A stretch of 36,286 nucleotides of DNA from Sulfurovaceae bacterium. GTDB lineage: Bacteria; Campylobacterota; Campylobacteria; Campylobacterales; Sulfurovaceae. Below the pieces are notes generated by a model that saw only the letters and a program-made list of their open reading frames with translations, had not been told where the DNA came from and ran no database searches. This document shows, one piece after another, positions 27,583 through 35,264 of this stretch. Where the stretch lies: NCBI GenBank assembly GCA_037383745.1, contig JARROQ010000026.1:1-36286 (forward strand), given 5' to 3'. Every line of letters starts with the position of its first letter. Position 1 is the stretch's first letter. The position numbers were made by a program, and so were the translations under genes.

Positions 27583-28308
27583 TTATGAGTGTTTCTCAAG
27601 TAATCCGATTTTATATCCGAAGCTATTTTTATTTAAGATTATATTTTGTGTTGTTGCTTCCCTGATGCGATGGACAAGGGAGCGTAGTGCTTGATTTGAC
27701 TTTGGGTTGTCCCATAGTTTTTCAATTATGGTATCAGCTTCTAAAGTTATATGCTTGTTTTGGCATAAAAGTTCGATAAGTTGCAGAGCTTTAGAACCTA
27801 ACGCCACCTCTTTATCGTGTAAAAAAAGTCTCTTTATCTGACTATCATAGATATAGCCATCTGCTAGATATATTTTGTTTTCTAGAAAGATTTTTTTATC
27901 GTTTATCGGTTTTTTGTCGATAGCCAATCTTGCATTCGCCAACTTTAATGTTGCCAAAATCTCTTGATCTCTGTAGGGCTTTAGCAGATAAGCAAAAGCT
28001 TCAGATTCTACAGCATAATTTATCATCTCTTTATCTGAATATGCCGTAAGAAATACGATGAGTATTTCAGGATAAGCATAATGAATTCTTGTTGCAGCCT
28101 CTGCCCCGCTCATATGATCTTTTAACATTACATCCATGAAAATAAGATCCGGTTTTTCTCGTTTTGTAACCTCAATAGCCTCAACACCCGAAGCAATCAT
28201 AGCAATCACTTCATGCCCTTCTAGCTCAAGTATCTTTTTCAGATAATTTGCAGGTATTACATCATCTTCAACTATGACTATTCTCATTATTCTCCCTAGT
28301 AAATTCAA
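27583..28308 (-). CDS. Two-component response regulator, OmpR-type winged-helix output
   Basis: REC domain (IVEDD...DLIFMDVML...) plus a C-terminal trans_reg_C-like segment. Alternative start MRIVIV 21 nt downstream. Overlaps the HK gene 3' end. Confidence 0.75.
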   Translation of the reverse strand: MNLLGRIMRIVIVEDDVIPANYLKKILELEGHEVIAMIASGVEAIEVTKREKPDLIFMDVMLKDHMSGAEAATRIHYAYPEILIVFLTAYSDKEMINYAVESEAFAYLLKPYRDQEILATLKLANARLAIDKKPINDKKIFLENKIYLADGYIYDSQIKRLFLHDKEVALGSKALQLIELLCQNKHITLEADTIIEKLWDNPKSNQALRSLVHRIREATTQNIILNKNSFGYKIGLLEKHS

Positions 28309-29161
28309 TCTTATATGTTGTCCCCTTATGAGTATCCATAGTCATCTTGGCATCTAACTGTGAGACGGTCATCTCTACTAGATTGGCTCCAAACCCTTTG
28401 GGTGTATTTGTGATATCAAAACCTTTTCCATCGTCCTTGTAAGAAAAGATCAATTTGTTATTGAGCGTTTCAAGCCCTAGAGCTATAGTCCCGCCTTTGC
28501 CGTTAAATGCATATTTGATAGAGTTAATCATCAATTCATTGATCATAATACCAAATTGAATCATACTTTCAATGGGAAGTTTCAAAGGAATCATCTCAAT
28601 CTCAACTTTTATGTTTTCTGTACCTTTATTAGTCTGCAAAATATAATCTGTCAGTTTCAAAACATAGGCGCTAAAGTCAATATCCGCCAAGTTATCTTGC
28701 ACATATAGCATCTCATGTGCCATTGCTATAGACTCTAGGCGTAACTTGTTTTGATCTATTAGCCTATGCACTTCAGGAGAGTGACTCTCTAATTTTTGAA
28801 GTCCGAGGATTGATGCTACAAGGTTGAGGTTGTTTTTTACGCGATGATGTATCTCTTTGAGTAAAAATGTTTTTTGCCTATTTGCATCTTCGAGCTCTAC
28901 ATAAGTGCGCTCGATGGCTACATGGTAAAAGGTGCCAAATGCGAGGACAAATAAGAGTGCGATGATATAGGCACTCATATTTTGAGCACTATAGAGCAAA
29001 GCATGCGTCTCATGAGTGCTGTATCCGTAGCCAAATATGATAGCCAAAATGAAAAAATAGATCCCCATATGAATCATCATCTTTCGAGTTGAGAGCAAGA
29101 TGAAACCTACCATGGGCAAGAGAAGTGTAAAGATGATACTGATATTAAAATGGTTATGCAC
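28268..29161 (-). CDS. Sensor histidine kinase (HisKA_2-type H-box)
   Basis: Two N-terminal TM segments. H-box EIHHRVKNNLNLVASIL. ATPase region with NELMINSIKYAF and DDGKGF. Confidence 0.8.
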   Translation of the reverse strand: MHNHFNISIIFTLLLPMVGFILLSTRKMMIHMGIYFFILAIIFGYGYSTHETHALLYSAQNMSAYIIALLFVLAFGTFYHVAIERTYVELEDANRQKTFLLKEIHHRVKNNLNLVASILGLQKLESHSPEVHRLIDQNKLRLESIAMAHEMLYVQDNLADIDFSAYVLKLTDYILQTNKGTENIKVEIEMIPLKLPIESMIQFGIMINELMINSIKYAFNGKGGTIALGLETLNNKLIFSYKDDGKGFDITNTPKGFGANLVEMTVSQLDAKMTMDTHKGTTYKIEFTRENNENSHS

Positions 29162-30027: not shown

Positions 30028-30789
30028 ATGTTAAACGAATTAAAATGTCTTCTTATCAAACCGTCTATGTATCATCATAGCTATTCTCGTATAGATTGCG
30101 ATGATACTGTTTCGGATGAATTTAGCATCCTGTGCTGGAATGTACACAAAAACAATGATACTTTCTCATTTAGTAACTATATCACTGAGTTTTCCAATCG
30201 AAAGCCCGTTGATTTTTATATATTTCAAGAGGCTGATTTTAAACACGATACGGAGCTAAATCTTCCGGATTTACCGTTCAGTGCCGCTGCAAATCTAGAA
30301 AAAAGCTCTACATTTTACGGCGTTTTGACGGCAACAAGATGCAAAACAATGTATAGCGAATCTTTCCTTTCGCATGGCAAAGAGTTGATATTTGGTCCTC
30401 GCAAGAGTCTGCTTTTGACAAGACACTCTTTTAAGGACGGCTCCCCTTTGTTGATCTTAAATCTTCATGCTATCAATCTAAGAGAAAATAGACACTACTA
30501 TAAAGAGATAGATAGGATCATTAAGATCATCGATGATTATGATGGGGCGATGATCATCGCAGGGGATTTTAACTCGTGGAATAAAAATAGGATGAAGTTT
30601 CTGCACACAAAGATGAAAGAGCTCCATTTTACGCATGTCCCGTTTTCAAAAAGCGATAAGGTCAAGTCTTTTATGAAAAATCATTTGGATTTTATCTTCT
30701 ATAGAGGAGTTGAACTTCTCGAGTACAGTATAGAGAGAAATCACAAACTCTCTGATCATCATCCTCTATTTGCTAAGTTCAAGCGTTGA
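30028..30789 (+). CDS. Endonuclease/exonuclease/phosphatase (EEP) family protein
   Basis: LCWNVHKNN near the N-terminus. IAGDFNSW and SDHHPL near the C-terminus are EEP catalytic signatures. Confidence 0.7.
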   Translation: MLNELKCLLIKPSMYHHSYSRIDCDDTVSDEFSILCWNVHKNNDTFSFSNYITEFSNRKPVDFYIFQEADFKHDTELNLPDLPFSAAANLEKSSTFYGVLTATRCKTMYSESFLSHGKELIFGPRKSLLLTRHSFKDGSPLLILNLHAINLRENRHYYKEIDRIIKIIDDYDGAMIIAGDFNSWNKNRMKFLHTKMKELHFTHVPFSKSDKVKSFMKNHLDFIFYRGVELLEYSIERNHKLSDHHPLFAKFKR

Positions 30790-30981: not shown

Positions 30982-31845
30982 ATGAATCAAACAGAAGTGA
31001 CTTTTTGGGATGTGGAACATGGCAATGCTGCACATATTAAGACACCCAATGGTAGACATATAGTAATTGATCTTGGTATTGGTTCTTATGAGTCCGGGCG
31101 AGAGTTTAGTCCTCTATTGCATCTAAAAAATAACGGCATAGATCAATTGGATTGTGTAGTTATAACACATCCTCATTTGGATCACATTGATGATATATTA
31201 AATTTTGATGTTTTAAGCCCAAAAGTTTTATTGAGATCAACACATTTAAGCAAAGAAGAAATACTTGGTGAAGTTAGGGCCCAAGATAGAGAAAAATTCG
31301 ATAAATATTTTGAAATTGACAGTCGATACAATAGCCCAATAAGTAATACGGTCAACGATCTAAGTTTATCTGAGTATTGGGGTGAATTAAAGATTAAAAC
31401 TTTTGTATCAGATGCCTGTGCTCACTCTAATATCAATAATCATAGCATTATTGTTGTAATTGAATATGTAGGTATAAAGGTTGTATTTACTGGGGATAAT
31501 GAAACTTGCTCATATAATGAACTTTTAGCACTTCCAGAGTTTAAAGATACTGTGAAAAAAGCAGATATTCTGTTGGCAGCTCATCATGGAAGAGAGTCTG
31601 GATATCATAATGACTTTGTTTCTTTAGTAAATCCTAGAGTGACAGTTGTATCAGACGGTAGATTTGGTGATACAAGTGCTACCTCGAGATATTGGTTTAA
31701 AAGTAGAGGTTGGGATGTATATAAAAGCGATGGGAGTAGTAGTAAAAGGTATGTTTTAACTACTCGGCAAGATGGTGAGGTGGTAGCACGTTTTGGTTAT
31801 CAAAATAATACTACCGAAACATTTTTAAATATAAAAATTAACTAG
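30982..31845 (+). CDS. Metallo-beta-lactamase-fold protein, ComEC-type MBL domain (predicted nuclease/hydrolase), MBL-1
   Basis: VITHPHLDHID (HxHxDH). C-terminal LLAAHHGRESGYHNDFVSLVNPRVTVVSDGRFG...GWDVYKSDGSS mirrors the ComEC C-terminal MBL segment (HHGS...v.P..aviS.G...). Confidence 0.65.
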   Translation: MNQTEVTFWDVEHGNAAHIKTPNGRHIVIDLGIGSYESGREFSPLLHLKNNGIDQLDCVVITHPHLDHIDDILNFDVLSPKVLLRSTHLSKEEILGEVRAQDREKFDKYFEIDSRYNSPISNTVNDLSLSEYWGELKIKTFVSDACAHSNINNHSIIVVIEYVGIKVVFTGDNETCSYNELLALPEFKDTVKKADILLAAHHGRESGYHNDFVSLVNPRVTVVSDGRFGDTSATSRYWFKSRGWDVYKSDGSSSKRYVLTTRQDGEVVARFGYQNNTTETFLNIKIN

Positions 31846-31854
31846 GAGGACATC

Positions 31855-32349
31855 ATGAGCGAATTAATAAATAAAATATCGTCATATAATTTTTTTAACT
31901 ATTTGTTGCCAGGGGTTATATATGTAGTATTGATAGAAAATACGACAACATATAAAATATTACAAGAAAATATGATTGTAAATGCGTTTTTAGTGTATTT
32001 TATAGGCTTAGTGATAAGCCGTGTTGGTTCGCTTTTGATAGAACATTTATTGCAAAAGATTGCTCCGCATGAAGAGTATAAAGACTTTATTAGCGCCTGT
32101 CAGCAGGATTCTAAAATAGAAATGCTTTCTGAAGTAAATAATATGTATAGAACTTTTATATCATTATTTATAGTTTTATTTTGTTCTGAAATATATATAG
32201 TAATTACATCTTGTTTTTCTCTAAGTGTAAAAACCAATATCAATATAGTGGCATGCATATTAATACTTTTATTTATTCTTTCATATAGAAAGCAAACCAT
32301 ATACATAACAAAAAGAATTAAGTTGGTAAACAAAAAGGACTCAAAATGA
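31855..32349 (+). CDS. Small 4-TM membrane protein, uncharacterised
   Basis: 164 aa, four hydrophobic helices, extremely AT-rich. Start 10 nt after MBL-1. Its stop overlaps the MBL-2 ATG (ATGA). Confidence 0.5.
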   Translation: MSELINKISSYNFFNYLLPGVIYVVLIENTTTYKILQENMIVNAFLVYFIGLVISRVGSLLIEHLLQKIAPHEEYKDFISACQQDSKIEMLSEVNNMYRTFISLFIVLFCSEIYIVITSCFSLSVKTNINIVACILILLFILSYRKQTIYITKRIKLVNKKDSK

Positions 32350-33497
32350 GTAAAAATGCAAAAATAATATTTTACCCTGTAGATAATGGCAATATGATTC
32401 TTCTTAAATTGGAAGATAAAACAACTATATTAGTAGATATTTATGTTCGAAAAAAAGCATCAGATGAGAATGAAAAAGATTTTTATGATGTCATGTCACA
32501 TCTCAAGGAGAATTTGGAAAAAGATAATCAAGATAGATATTGTATTGATGTATTTCTATTAACTCATTTAGATGAAGATCATATACTAGGTTTGCAAGAT
32601 AATTTTTATTTGGGCGATATAAATCAATATAATGATGAGAATAAAGAAAAAATTATTATTAAAGAGACATGGAGTTCTGAAAGGTTCTGGAAAAGAGAAA
32701 CAGAATCAATAACATTATCAGATGATGCAAAAGCTTACAATAGGGAAATGAGACGAAGAGCCAATCTTCATAAAGATAATGGGGAGCAAATTCAAGAAGA
32801 GGGCAATAGAGCTATTATTATAGGGGATGATGAAGATGACGAAGGATATAACAATATTATTCACAAAGTTGGTCAAAGCACATCAAAAGTCAACAATCAG
32901 ACAAAGAGTAATTTTAGAATAAATATTTTGGGACCATTGGAGCAACAAGAGGGTGAAGAAAAAGAAAGTTTTGATGAAAAGAACAGAGGTAGTGTGATTC
33001 TTCAAATTGAAATAACAGTTGGAAGTTATACAAATAAAATTTTATTGACTGGTGATGCAGAAGTTAATGTATGGGAATACATGAGGAAAAAATACAATAA
33101 TACTCTATTGGAGTATGATATTTTATGTGTGCCTCATCACTGTTCAATGGGAAGTCTTGGAAGAAAAAACGATGAAGATAAATATGATATATCAGATGAT
33201 GCTTTAGATGCTTTATCACAAGCGAAAGATGGTGCCGTCATTATTTCTAGTAGTAAGGAAATTTTAGATGATGACAATAATCCTCCCCATTATGATGCAA
33301 AACAAGAGTACTTGAAAATTGTAAGTAGTGATGATGATTTTATTTGTACAGAAGAATATCCCGATAGCGAAAATGTTGAACCTATTGTAATTGAATTTAC
33401 ATCAGGTGGTCCACAATTAAAATCAGGAACATCTGTAAGTAAAATTGGCACTGCTTCGGGAGCTTCATCCCAAGCTATATATCCACATGGAAGATAA
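32346..33497 (+). CDS. Metallo-beta-lactamase-fold protein, ComEC-type, with acidic insert and Gly/Ser/Ala-rich C-terminal tail, MBL-2
   Basis: FLLTHLDEDHILG, LLTGDAEVN, CVPHHCSMGSLGR...GAVIISSS. Tail ...SGGPQLKSGTSVSKIGTASGASSQAIYPHGR is encoded in the left arm of a 63-bp inverted repeat. Confidence 0.55.
   Translation: MSKNAKIIFYPVDNGNMILLKLEDKTTILVDIYVRKKASDENEKDFYDVMSHLKENLEKDNQDRYCIDVFLLTHLDEDHILGLQDNFYLGDINQYNDENKEKIIIKETWSSERFWKRETESITLSDDAKAYNREMRRRANLHKDNGEQIQEEGNRAIIIGDDEDDEGYNNIIHKVGQSTSKVNNQTKSNFRINILGPLEQQEGEEKESFDEKNRGSVILQIEITVGSYTNKILLTGDAEVNVWEYMRKKYNNTLLEYDILCVPHHCSMGSLGRKNDEDKYDISDDALDALSQAKDGAVIISSSKEILDDDNNPPHYDAKQEYLKIVSSDDDFICTEEYPDSENVEPIVIEFTSGGPQLKSGTSVSKIGTASGASSQAIYPHGR
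33425..33487. repeat. Left arm of a perfect 63-bp inverted repeat (codes the MBL-2 C-terminal tail)
   Basis: The exact reverse complement occurs at 33599-33661. 111-bp spacer between the arms. Confidence 0.9.
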
Positions 33498-33598
33498 AGA
33501 ATACCTTATTTCATTAGCAAGGAAATTTGCCAATGAACATAAAGCTGTAAATAGAATATATGACAACTACACAAATGATAAAGGTTTACTTTGTTTTG

Positions 33599-33661
33599 AT
33601 GTGGATATATAGCTTGGGATGAAGCTCCCGAAGCAGTGCCAATTTTACTTACAGATGTTCC
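33599..33661. repeat. Right arm of the perfect 63-bp inverted repeat (contains the E2-like start codon)
   Basis: Reverse complement of 33425-33487 verified base by base. Identity breaks on both flanks. Confidence 0.9.
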
Positions 33662-34169
33662 AGAAAAAGTTGTTCTTGAATTTCCAAATGAGTTCCCTTT
33701 TAAATCACCCCAAGTATATTTAAGAGATGACTTTAATAGAAACTTTGCGCATATAAACCCTATAGCTGACAAATTTAATCCATGTATTTTTGAGGGTTCT
33801 TTAAATGAACTGATACAACAACCTTTGTGGATGGATGGCATACTAGACCAATTGGTTGATTGGCTTGAAACTTCTGCGTCTGATTCTATGATCAATCCTA
33901 ATCAGGGCTGGGAGCCTATGCGTGTGGATGACAACAATGGAATTATCATATATGACAGAGCGTATATAATTCAAGAGCATCTTACAAATAATAAATTTGC
34001 CTTTAAAATAATGTATAAAAAGAAAACGGATTTCTTCATCAGTAGAATTTTTACAAATGAAGAAGTTGTAATAGATACTTTTGATAGGAGTTATATATTT
34101 TGTTTTTCTTCAGCAAATGTATCAAATGAGTATTTGCCTAATAATGTAAAAAACTTTACAGATTTTTAA
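33636..34169 (+). CDS. Minimal E2-like (UBC-fold) ubiquitin-conjugating-enzyme homolog
   Basis: PFKSPQVYLRDDFNRNFAHINPIADKFNPCIFEG parallels the UBC PF.PP.v.F...HPN...G.IC core with a candidate catalytic Cys. GTG start lies inside the IR right arm. Confidence 0.5.
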   Translation: MPILLTDVPEKVVLEFPNEFPFKSPQVYLRDDFNRNFAHINPIADKFNPCIFEGSLNELIQQPLWMDGILDQLVDWLETSASDSMINPNQGWEPMRVDDNNGIIIYDRAYIIQEHLTNNKFAFKIMYKKKTDFFISRIFTNEEVVIDTFDRSYIFCFSSANVSNEYLPNNVKNFTDF

Positions 34170-34344
34170 CACTAGTTCAGATATTGAAATATTACATTTT
34201 ACTATTGAGTTAAAACGACATAAAAAGAAAGAACATGAAGCTCATCAAGACTCAGAGGTAAAGATCTTATCGGGTTTAAATTTTGCAAATACAGAAATAT
34301 TACAACAATTTTCAGGAGCCAAAAACACTATTAAGGAAACCCAA

Positions 34345-34881
34345 ATGATTACACAAATAGGATGTGGATCATTGGGTTCAAAAATAGCTATGCATTTAGC
34401 TAGAAATGGAAACGATAATTTTATTCTAGTAGATAATAAATATTTTGTACCAAACAACAATGCTAGACATGCTTTATTTTCATCATCATCTATTTTTAGA
34501 AAAGTAGAAATTTTACAAAAAGCAATGTTTGAGCTAGGCTTAAAAAATATTCAAATAGAAAATAAAAGCATTTTTGATGTTACTAATATAGGCACATCAA
34601 GTGAAGATATCATCATGGATTCGACTGCAAGTATGTCAGTTAATAATTTTTTAACAAAACAAGCGTTTAGTGGAAGATTAATTCATACTTCTTTGTACCA
34701 TAATGGAACAATTGCGTTTATAGGGATTGAAGGGAAAGATAGAAAAGTTAAAATAATTGATATGATTGCTTACATGTACCACTTATGTACAGAGGATAAA
34801 AAAATAGCAAAAAGATTGAACATTTTGAGCCATTGGAAACTAGAACCATCAAAGGAGTTCAGGATGAAAACTGGGAAATAA
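34345..34881 (+). CDS. E1-like (ThiF/MoeB-family) adenylyltransferase, minimal 178 aa
   Basis: IGCGSLGSKIAMHLARNG Rossmann GxGxxG, LVDNKYFVPNNNARH (D...N.R), IIMDSTAS (Mg-binding Asp). RBS AAGGA. Confidence 0.6.
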   Translation: MITQIGCGSLGSKIAMHLARNGNDNFILVDNKYFVPNNNARHALFSSSSIFRKVEILQKAMFELGLKNIQIENKSIFDVTNIGTSSEDIIMDSTASMSVNNFLTKQAFSGRLIHTSLYHNGTIAFIGIEGKDRKVKIIDMIAYMYHLCTEDKKIAKRLNILSHWKLEPSKEFRMKTGK

Positions 34882-35264
34882 GAATATTTCAGCATGTATT
34901 AGAATCTATTAAAGAAGAGTCTTTAAAGTGGAATGATTTAGAAACAGGTGGGATTTTAATTGGCCACATTTCCATACCAACTCAAACAATTATCATCACT
35001 GGACAACTAGAAGCACCAGAAGATAGTGAAAGAGGAAAAACAAAATTTTCTTCAGGTATTAAAGGATTAAGTCAAAAAATTCAAGAGATTGAACATTCCT
35101 CAGCTATGATGATTACTCAATTAGGAACTTGGCATAGTCATCCAAATAGCTCACCTAGTCCATCATATATAGATTTAAATAGTAAAAAAGAAATGTATAA
35201 AGACAGAAATGAAATGCCTACAGTTTGTTTAATTTGGTCTCATAGTGGATTTACTGTTTATTAA
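34833..35264 (+). CDS. JAB/MPN (JAMM) metalloprotease-type deubiquitinase-like protein
   Basis: ETGGILIG (Glu) and WHSHPNSSPSPSYID, an exact HxHx7Sx2D JAMM motif. TTG start. 49-nt overlap with the E1 gene in another frame. Confidence 0.75.
   Translation: METRTIKGVQDENWEIRIFQHVLESIKEESLKWNDLETGGILIGHISIPTQTIIITGQLEAPEDSERGKTKFSSGIKGLSQKIQEIEHSSAMMITQLGTWHSHPNSSPSPSYIDLNSKKEMYKDRNEMPTVCLIWSHSGFTVY

Follow-up and report, generated by a model that had tools for sequence, protein, structure and literature searches.

The window analysed here, a stretch of 36,286 nucleotides forming positions 1 to 36,286 of contig JARROQ010000026.1 (assembly GCA_037383745.1) from a Sulfurovaceae bacterium, encodes an MBL-fold enzyme, MBL-2, followed by the remnants of cap2_3, a gene in which E2, E1 and JAB modules are joined. 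On sequence comparison the locus is a copy of the named 6A-MBL anti-phage system, a sister of type II CBASS, and has the architecture of operon type 6a of Iyer, Burroughs and Aravind 2006. The best explanation of the locus as a whole, and in our judgement a probable one, is that MBL-2 would serve as its own "ubiquitin", and that the lesions of cap2_3 in this contig are an artefact and not a switch. MBL-2 scores 349.1 bits against the NCBIfam equivalog NF058524.1 (6A-MBL_enzyme; cut-off 220, E=2.6e-104). The system, reportedly named in van den Berg et al. 2024 in Cell Host Microbe, is already known, and so is the proposal of conjugation of its MBL enzyme: the system has a name, curated NCBI models and reported anti-phage activity, and the conjugation model has been published. 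Passages of two reports describe 6A-MBL as a confirmed defence system that also acts against jumbo phages (PMC13276650; 10.1101/2025.09.30.679545), and a passage of a third states that MBL pathways conjugate their enzyme, citing van den Berg et al. 2024 for the MBL pathway (PMC11601596).

The initial annotation of this DNA had proposed the MBL-2 tail as a substrate of the ligase; it did not mention the invariant His-Gly near the end of the tail or the single residue (R) beyond it. The C-terminal rule set out below, [H/Y/F/W]-[G/A] followed by 0-8 removable residues, names the exact residues to mutate and predicts that the JAB domain primes the MBL tail.

The C-terminus of MBL-2 and its relatives

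The features that carry the argument lie at the 3' end of the MBL-2 gene.

32346..33497, + strand: MBL-2, the MBL-fold enzyme of the 6A-MBL system, 383 aa (NCBIfam, homologues, AlphaFold2)
33435..33494, + strand: C-terminal tail of MBL-2, residues 364-383, predicted disordered (pLDDT <50)
33486-33491, + strand: codons of H381-G382 of MBL-2 (invariant in 28 diverse homologues)
33492-33494, + strand: R383, the single residue after H381-G382

Positions 33402-33494 of the window translate to SGGPQLKSGTSVSKIGTASGASSQAIYPHGR, the last 31 residues of MBL-2, with the stop codon at 33495-33497. The earlier description of this tail as flexible and of low complexity holds: the translation is exact, S, T, A and G make up 58% of the 31 residues, and in an AlphaFold2 model built with 28 homologues as input (mean pLDDT 86, pTM 0.87) the pLDDT falls below 50 at residues 364-383, for which reason the tail is predicted to be disordered. 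The composition is shared by the family, since across 80 homologues S/T/A/G average 47% in the last 30 residues vs 24% in the protein body. Altogether 585 homologues of MBL-2 were retrieved. Nearly all of the 120 closest terminate in HG or in HG plus a few residues, and among 28 diverse homologues, the most distant at 42% identity, H381 and G382 never vary, unlike the rest of the tail.

The same terminus recurs over a wide taxonomic range. A scan of 185,579 species genomes yielded 80 related loci (related loci and contigs carry the prefix L here), which span Campylobacterota, Desulfobacterota, Cyanobacteria, Proteobacteria, Bacillota, Bacteroidota, Planctomycetota, Acidobacteriota and others. 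Their MBL tails end as follows.

HG exactly: 58/80 loci
HG plus 1-2 residues: 7/80 loci
PPRAG: 10/80 loci, nine of them with 2-5 extra residues
HKAG: 1/80 loci
YA: 4/80 loci

Nine of the ten members of the PPRAG clade (L037, L043, L047, L060-L062, L064, L072, L076 and L080) carry extra residues such as SWK, AWK, SNDKK, RP and RWR after the motif. The cap2_3 of the clade is divergent in the E2 region, and nearly every member would need C-terminal processing ahead of adenylation.

An exhaustive hidden Markov model search of 1.84 billion representatives gave 1,827 relatives, 227 of them below 1e-30. The motif was counted in 107 full-length representatives at 50% identity, drawn from the best 150 relatives of that search, with 677 neighbouring open reading frames (ORFs) as controls. 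An [H/Y/F/W]-[G/A] pair lies within the last 10 residues of 95/107 representatives (89%) vs 12.7% of the control ORFs, and it is exactly terminal in 59/107 vs 1.9%; the other 36 of the 95 motif-bearing representatives have 1-8 residues beyond it. What follows the terminal Gly varies, being R in MBL-2 and SWK, SNDKK, RK, GKHE and others in relatives. His is frequent at the penultimate position, Tyr or Phe just as frequent, and the final position is always taken by a small residue, Gly or Ala. The family-wide MBL C-terminus has the form [H/Y/F/W]-[G/A] with labile extensions of 0-8 residues.

The cap2_3 start codon gives one reason to ask whether the protein is what is conserved. The cap2_3 ATG of the window, at 33487, falls within the His-Gly codons of MBL-2, and about half of the loci likewise have it inside CAT-GGN codons, with an overlap of 8-11 nt, so that His-Gly might be kept only through the downstream start codon (cATGg) and translational coupling. 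We find this scarcely credible. In at least 29 HG loci the cap2_3 start, placed by a heuristic nearest-Met prediction, falls 2-37 nt past the MBL stop and the genes do not overlap, and the YG, FG, WG and YA termini of distant clades contain no ATG. The retention of HG in these non-overlapping loci, together with the ATG-free YG, FG and YA clades, rules the explanation out and indicates that conservation acts on the protein.

Were the MBL tail a stand-in for ubiquitin, a conserved end like that of a ubiquitin-like protein (Ubl) would be expected on it and on no other protein of the operon, and this is the pattern observed. The other operon proteins compared, namely the membrane proteins, cap2_3 itself and the paralogues of MBL-1 (a second MBL-fold protein encoded upstream), have no conserved C-terminus, and were rejected as conjugated substrates on that ground; MBL-1-like paralogues occur in 7 loci, and 0/7 end in Gly.

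A discrete Ubl gene was also looked for. The claim that no small Gly-ending Ubl ORF exists in 30.9-35.4 kb is confirmed on both strands: the + strand ORFs there are only MBL-1, the membrane protein, MBL-2 and the E2, E1 and JAB pieces, and the ten antisense ORFs of the locus (45-129 aa) have no Ubl-type Pfam match at E<=1. Searched over its full length, the window has no ORF of 45-160 aa with GG close to the C-terminus, and ThiS, MoaD and ubiquitin queries against its ORFs returned only noise (best E=0.34). The five small Gly-ending ORFs of the window are all more than 4 kb away from the locus, and none contains a Ubl domain. When the ORFs around the 80 related loci were clustered, no small ORF was conserved beside the system, the recurring small clusters being shadows of cap2_3, of the MBL gene or of a WYL regulator. 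A hidden Ubl gene was ruled out by the antisense scan, the whole-window searches and this clustering.

In the body of MBL-2 the metal-binding and catalytic residues H74, D78, H79, D237, H264 and H265 are intact. A profile of MBL-2 searched against PDB sequences gave a marginal match to ComEC alone, which Foldseek then confirmed, the nearest solved fold being the ComEC MBL nuclease domain 9ic4 (E=1.5e-12). PADLOC indicates a weak relation to the MBL modules of Lamassu, DRT and Avs1.

The cap2_3 ligase-peptidase and the proposed conjugation

Downstream of MBL-2 the coding sequence is present in pieces.

33487..35264, + strand: cap2_3 gene remnants, an E2-E1-JAB triple-module protein of 706 aa if intact (Pfam, alignment)
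33487-33612, + strand: piece 1, the N-terminal 41 aa, then a stop
33636-34169, + strand: piece 2, E2 (Pfam Prok-E2_A)
34170-34881, + strand: piece 3, linker and E1 (Pfam ThiF)
34833-35264, + strand: piece 4, JAB (Pfam Prok-JAB)

These had been read as separate E1, E2 and JAB genes, a reading that the relatives overturn. The contigs with close homologues are L001 (MBL-2 89% identical), L002/L003 (81%), L005 (identical MBL-2 protein) and L006, and they share one order: membrane protein, MBL-2, and a single protein of 704-708 aa with Prok-E2_A, ThiF and Prok-JAB domains. The start codon of the fusion lies within the His-Gly codons of MBL-2 (cATGGaagaTAA). Single intact cap2_3 genes are found in L001, L002, L005 and from L007 onwards. 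Judged by these alignments, the E2, E1 and JAB ORFs of the window are fragments of one Cap2+Cap3 fusion gene, broken in this assembly: the stretch 33487-35264 retains all three domains, split by a frameshift and two gaps, where L005 has an intact protein of 706 aa. The gene adjoins the MBL gene in 76-78/80 loci, one exception being ended by a contig edge.

The intact relatives place the fusion close to the CBASS enzymes. P0121, which is 92% identical to the L005 fusion, scores 465.7 bits against NF058523.1 (6A-MBL_cap2_3; cut-off 320). A single-sequence search of the PDB with cap2_3 found only a Cap3-like peptidase and MccB; Cap2 was reached by profile and fold searches, the top solved matches of the family profile being the Cap2 structures 7tsq, 7tsx and 7to3 (E~1e-14). 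In Foldseek comparisons an AlphaFold2 model of P0121 (pLDDT 88) aligns with E. cloacae Cap2 (7to3_A) over 615 columns (E=8.8e-24), and its JAB domain with Cap3 (9ild_A) at a TM score of 0.73; structures of Bub (BubCD), Atg7, NEDD8-E1 and MccB are more distant fold matches. Invariant residues of the fusion protein include H92 and C103 in E2, a GxGSxGSK motif and C505 in E1, and the JAMM residues E600, H664, H666, S674 and D677. C505 sits in a low-confidence loop of the model and is presumed to be the E1 catalytic cysteine.

We consider it likely that the C-terminus of MBL-2 is the moiety conjugated by cap2_3, as judged from sequence conservation, structural models and analogy with Cap2 and its CD-NTase substrate. 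The disordered tail of about 20 residues would present the conserved His-Gly to the E1 domain. After binding the tail, E1 would adenylate its terminal Gly and hand it on as a thioester, via C505 of the E1 loop, to C103 of E2, for ligation to a target. The JAB domain would first remove the residue or residues after Gly (R383 here) and later reverse the conjugation, and the labile residues after Gly imply that it also primes the MBL substrate. The initial annotation had suggested just such a tail, used by E1 and E2 and trimmed or reversed by JAB, and the conserved terminus, the predicted disorder, the Cap2+Cap3 fold and the lack of a conserved C-terminus on the other operon proteins give it strong comparative and structural support.

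Several points weigh against this assignment. The PPRAG and YA tail types each coincide with one cap2_3 clade, a match that fits enzyme-substrate co-evolution, but it may be mere co-inheritance of both genes. About 11% of the distant representatives lack the [H/Y/F/W]-[G/A] motif, and in P0113, an MBL-2 homologue of 503 aa from a Logan metagenome, an AGS_C domain (PF18134, E=8.5e-26) stands in place of the HG tail, so that the tail is not obligatory for the MBL fold. Finally, the ligase gene is not intact in the contig, and if the lesions are real MBL-2 conjugation is impossible in the strain. AGS_C is a domain found at the C-terminus of SMODS/CD-NTases and cyclases, and its presence in P0113 is a hint that the "sensor/signalling enzyme" slot, rather than the effector slot, is the one filled by the MBL enzyme.

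The tail might instead be conserved for a role other than conjugation, with cap2_3 acting on another substrate such as a host ThiS or MoaD, a peptide or a small molecule, while the terminal His auto-inhibits the MBL metal site or the tail docks the membrane partner. Taken jointly, these possibilities seem to us unlikely. For operons that lack a Ubl, "the available ThiS/MoaD" has been proposed as modifier (Iyer 2006), and the sequence and fold searches also return MccB, which is E1-like and has a peptide as the target of adenylation; a penultimate residue that is often His, a metal ligand, would suit auto-inhibition. However, Tyr or Phe takes that place equally often, the residue after it is invariably small (Gly or Ala), which is what an E1 adenylation site demands, and only their removal would make sense of the labile extensions of 1-8 residues beyond Gly. 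Among solved structures Cap2 is by far the nearest to the ligase, and it acts on the enzyme of its own operon; a system that moves by horizontal transfer across phyla as a unit of 2-3 genes is unlikely to depend on a host Ubl.

A further variant retains MBL-2 as the conjugated protein within a module like that of Atg8 and Atg12, in which JAB primes the tail in cis, as Atg4 does, and the Atg7/Atg3-like ligase attaches MBL to a non-protein acceptor such as a membrane lipid, on the pattern of Atg8-PE, or to the co-encoded membrane protein. Most loci do have a membrane protein; we regard the variant as decidedly speculative and improbable. If true, a ComEC-like nuclease or signal-generating hydrolase would be tethered at the inner membrane, the site of phage DNA entry.

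The inverted repeat and the broken cap2_3 gene

The gene for the proposed ligase is, as assembled, disrupted at three places in this contig, and one of these involves the DNA that encodes the tail.

33426..33488, + strand: left arm of the inverted repeat, native, encodes the MBL-2 tail (tail protein conserved in all relatives)
33599..33661, + strand: right arm, a non-native inverted copy (alignment with L005, L001 and L002)
34165..34166, + strand: site of a 131-bp gap relative to the intact L005 gene, residues ~230-273 (DNA alignment)
34811..34812, + strand: site of a 200-bp gap relative to L005, residues ~490-556 (DNA alignment)

The arms of the repeat are perfect over 63 bp (33426-33488 and 33599-33661), and the 110-bp spacer between them holds the MBL-2 stop and the cap2_3 start. 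The initial annotation had seen in this a "duplicated, invertible" coding of the tail that made it doubly suspicious. The duplication is real as a perfect 63-bp repeat; the invertibility does not survive comparison with relatives, in which the repeat is absent, or the loss of the E2 frame. Nor does the duplication add weight to the tail as a substrate, the right arm having overwritten about 73 nt of E2 and occurring in none of the relatives. Its 63 nt are the exact reverse complement of 33426-33488 and replace that stretch of E2 coding sequence, with loss of residues ~41-65 of the intact protein and a shift of frame.

L005, an independent Logan assembly (SRR13768064), is intact across the 6A-MBL genes and has flanks near-identical to those of the window; the two differ at three sites, the right arm, the 131-bp gap and the 200-bp gap, and are otherwise near-identical. 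The 200-bp gap, at 34811/34812, takes out the invariant Cys505 loop. The inverted repeat is absent from L001, L002/L003, L005 and L006. The inverted copy is present in two contigs of metagenome-assembled genomes (MAGs), the window and L004 (GCA_037383805.1, JARROO010000113.1). In L004 a gap of 136 bp follows the repeat (window 33662-33797), a nested gap of 54 bp lies where the window misses 131 bp, and a gap of 108 bp with the same left edge lies where the window misses 200 bp. Several kb upstream the two contigs are further separated by indels of 166 nt and about 56 nt (~29166 and 30508-30577), with 100% identity elsewhere.

We are fairly confident that the inverted repeat is a lesion, an artefact of assembly or amplification. 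Short microhomology marks the ends of the inverted copy, ATGTnGATAT at one junction and ATGT at the second, a template-switch signature that fits in-vivo and in-vitro events alike. A functional repeat, either a segment inverted by a recombinase or an mRNA hairpin that controls cap2_3 translation, seems very improbable to us. It would account for the perfection and length of the arms, for the placement of the MBL-2 stop and cap2_3 start between them and for their occurrence in the window and in L004. Against this, the arms are missing from L005, which has about 20 scattered mismatches to the window outside the lesions and an intact gene, and from L001, L002/L003 and L006 too; the right arm displaces conserved E2 coding and shifts the frame; and indels of 50-170 bp between the two MAG contigs, at 100% identity, point to poor assembly. 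Inversion of the spacer would moreover give MBL-2 a nonsense tail (...YPHQNKVNLYHLC...), and an inverton was rejected for this reason together with the absence of the repeat from L001, L002, L005 and L006 and the destroyed E2 frame.

A correctly assembled contig in which the cap2_3 lesions are real, and in which MBL-2 is the orphan of a decaying 6A-MBL system, is possible but doubtful. The inverted copy is common to two deposited contigs, its junction microhomology suits a quasi-palindrome template switch in vivo no less than in vitro, and toxic defence genes are often inactivated. The gaps of the window and L004, however, lie at the same sites with different sizes, one pair having a common left edge, which is unlike independent deletions. 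Similar indels separate the two contigs outside the system, the independent assembly with near-identical flanks is intact, and the remaining coding sequence has no point substitutions relative to the intact copy.

The window and L004 differ only by indels of 50-200 bp at five sites, some of which share one edge. Together with the intact L005, these indels suggest systematic assembly or consensus errors in the MAGs, and other split genes in the window may also be artefacts. The apparent invertible repeats and split genes of a MAG contig thus carry a warning of assembly-level defects.

Neighbouring genes and comparison with known systems

Upstream of MBL-2 are two genes that bear on the composition of the system, preceded by four others.

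31855..32349, + strand: small multi-pass membrane protein, 164 aa (PADLOC PDC-M48A, E=1e-58)
30982..31845, + strand: MBL-1, a second ComEC-like MBL-fold protein, 287 aa (PADLOC PDC-M48B, E=4e-123)
30028-30789: endonuclease/exonuclease/phosphatase-family protein, the same gene being split by an indel in L004
29328-29969: secreted PAN-domain protein
28268-29161, - strand: histidine kinase of the HWE/HisKA_2 type
27583-28308, - strand: response regulator

MBL-1 also matches NCBIfam ComEC_Rec2 (E=2e-14) and is without a Gly tail. The membrane-protein gene lies directly upstream of MBL-2 with an overlap of 4 nt, and its product is probably a third component or the effector of the 6A-MBL system. A gene of this type precedes MBL-2 in L001, L002, L005 and others, and by a crude test at least 55/80 loci have a multi-pass membrane protein beside the system, drawn from four families. 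Two of these families supply the commonest accessory genes of 6A-MBL, and Pfam gives no significant match to either. The first, of about 217 aa (L016 9499-10161 and 38 other loci), lies mostly downstream of cap2_3; the second, of about 244 aa (L010 5282-5995 and 22 other loci), mostly precedes the MBL gene.

A divergently transcribed WYL-domain protein of about 300 aa (PF13280, E=1e-15) accompanies 19/80 loci, including L029 and L078. Its gene stands immediately upstream of the MBL gene on the opposite strand, and the protein is similar to the regulators of CBASS and BREX of the CapW/BrxR type; in 8 cyanobacterial loci this position belongs to another family, of about 288 aa. Restriction-modification genes recur beside 6A-MBL loci. 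In L002 (474-6055) the system lies beside two SLFN-like helicase genes, MazG, NUDIX and an SRA-HNH (ScoMcrA-like) nuclease, in what looks like a typical defence island.

Several known systems share parts of this design. Both PADLOC models of the candidate system PDC-M48 are matched in the window, by the membrane protein and by MBL-1. The membrane family of PDC-M48, however, precedes 6A-MBL enzymes in L001, L002, L007, L008, L011 and L014, which are free of MBL-1, so that PDC-M48A may be a shared membrane partner of two MBL-based systems and no part of a separate one.

Eukaryotic autophagy conjugation (Atg7, Atg3 and Atg10, Atg8 and Atg12, Atg4) offers a likeness at the level of the tail. Atg8 ends in FG-R, LC3 in FG-MKLSV, GABARAP in YG-L and Atg12 in WG or FG; Atg4 primes Atg8 at FG-R, and BilC similarly primes BilA. 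Like these proteins, the MBL substrates end in an aromatic residue or His followed by Gly, often with a few removable residues, as in the tails HG-R, YG-RK and FG-RR, and Atg7 is among the fold matches of cap2_3. In contrast to the Atg systems, the MBL substrate is an enzyme of 380 aa and no β-grasp protein, and the protease is a JAMM metalloprotease fused to the ligase and no cysteine protease. Cap2 is described as Atg7/Atg3-like (PMC11601596). The Bil and Bub systems share E1, E2 and JAB chemistry in defence-associated operons, and their JAB peptidase both pre-processes and deconjugates (PMC11601596, PMC10557695); they differ in encoding a discrete β-grasp Ubl, of which none was found in the window or conserved beside the 80 related loci.

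With other 6A-MBL loci the window shares an MBL-fold enzyme above the curated cut-off, followed by an E2-E1-JAB cap2_3 with stop and start overlapping, and its relatives lie in defence-island contexts (SLFN-type helicases, MazG, NUDIX, SRA-HNH, type I restriction-modification, WYL). It differs in that the inverted duplication and the two gaps leave cap2_3 as four ORFs, and in the extra MBL paralogue, MBL-1 (PDC-M48B), ahead of the membrane-protein gene.

From type II CBASS the system differs in the enzyme and in the packaging: a ComEC-like MBL hydrolase replaces the CD-NTase, Pfam and PADLOC detecting no nucleotidyltransferase domain among the ORFs of the locus; a single polypeptide combines Cap2 with Cap3; and neither a cyclic-nucleotide signal nor a receptor domain is evident in 6A-MBL. 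In common are the Cap2 fold over about 600 residues of the ligase, the Cap3-like peptidase, the lack of a Ubl, and an enzyme of the operon's own with a disordered tail and a conserved small-residue terminus. Membrane-protein partners and WYL-type regulators are common in both, and the membrane protein at most loci suggests a three-part system that runs parallel to CBASS and Pycsar.

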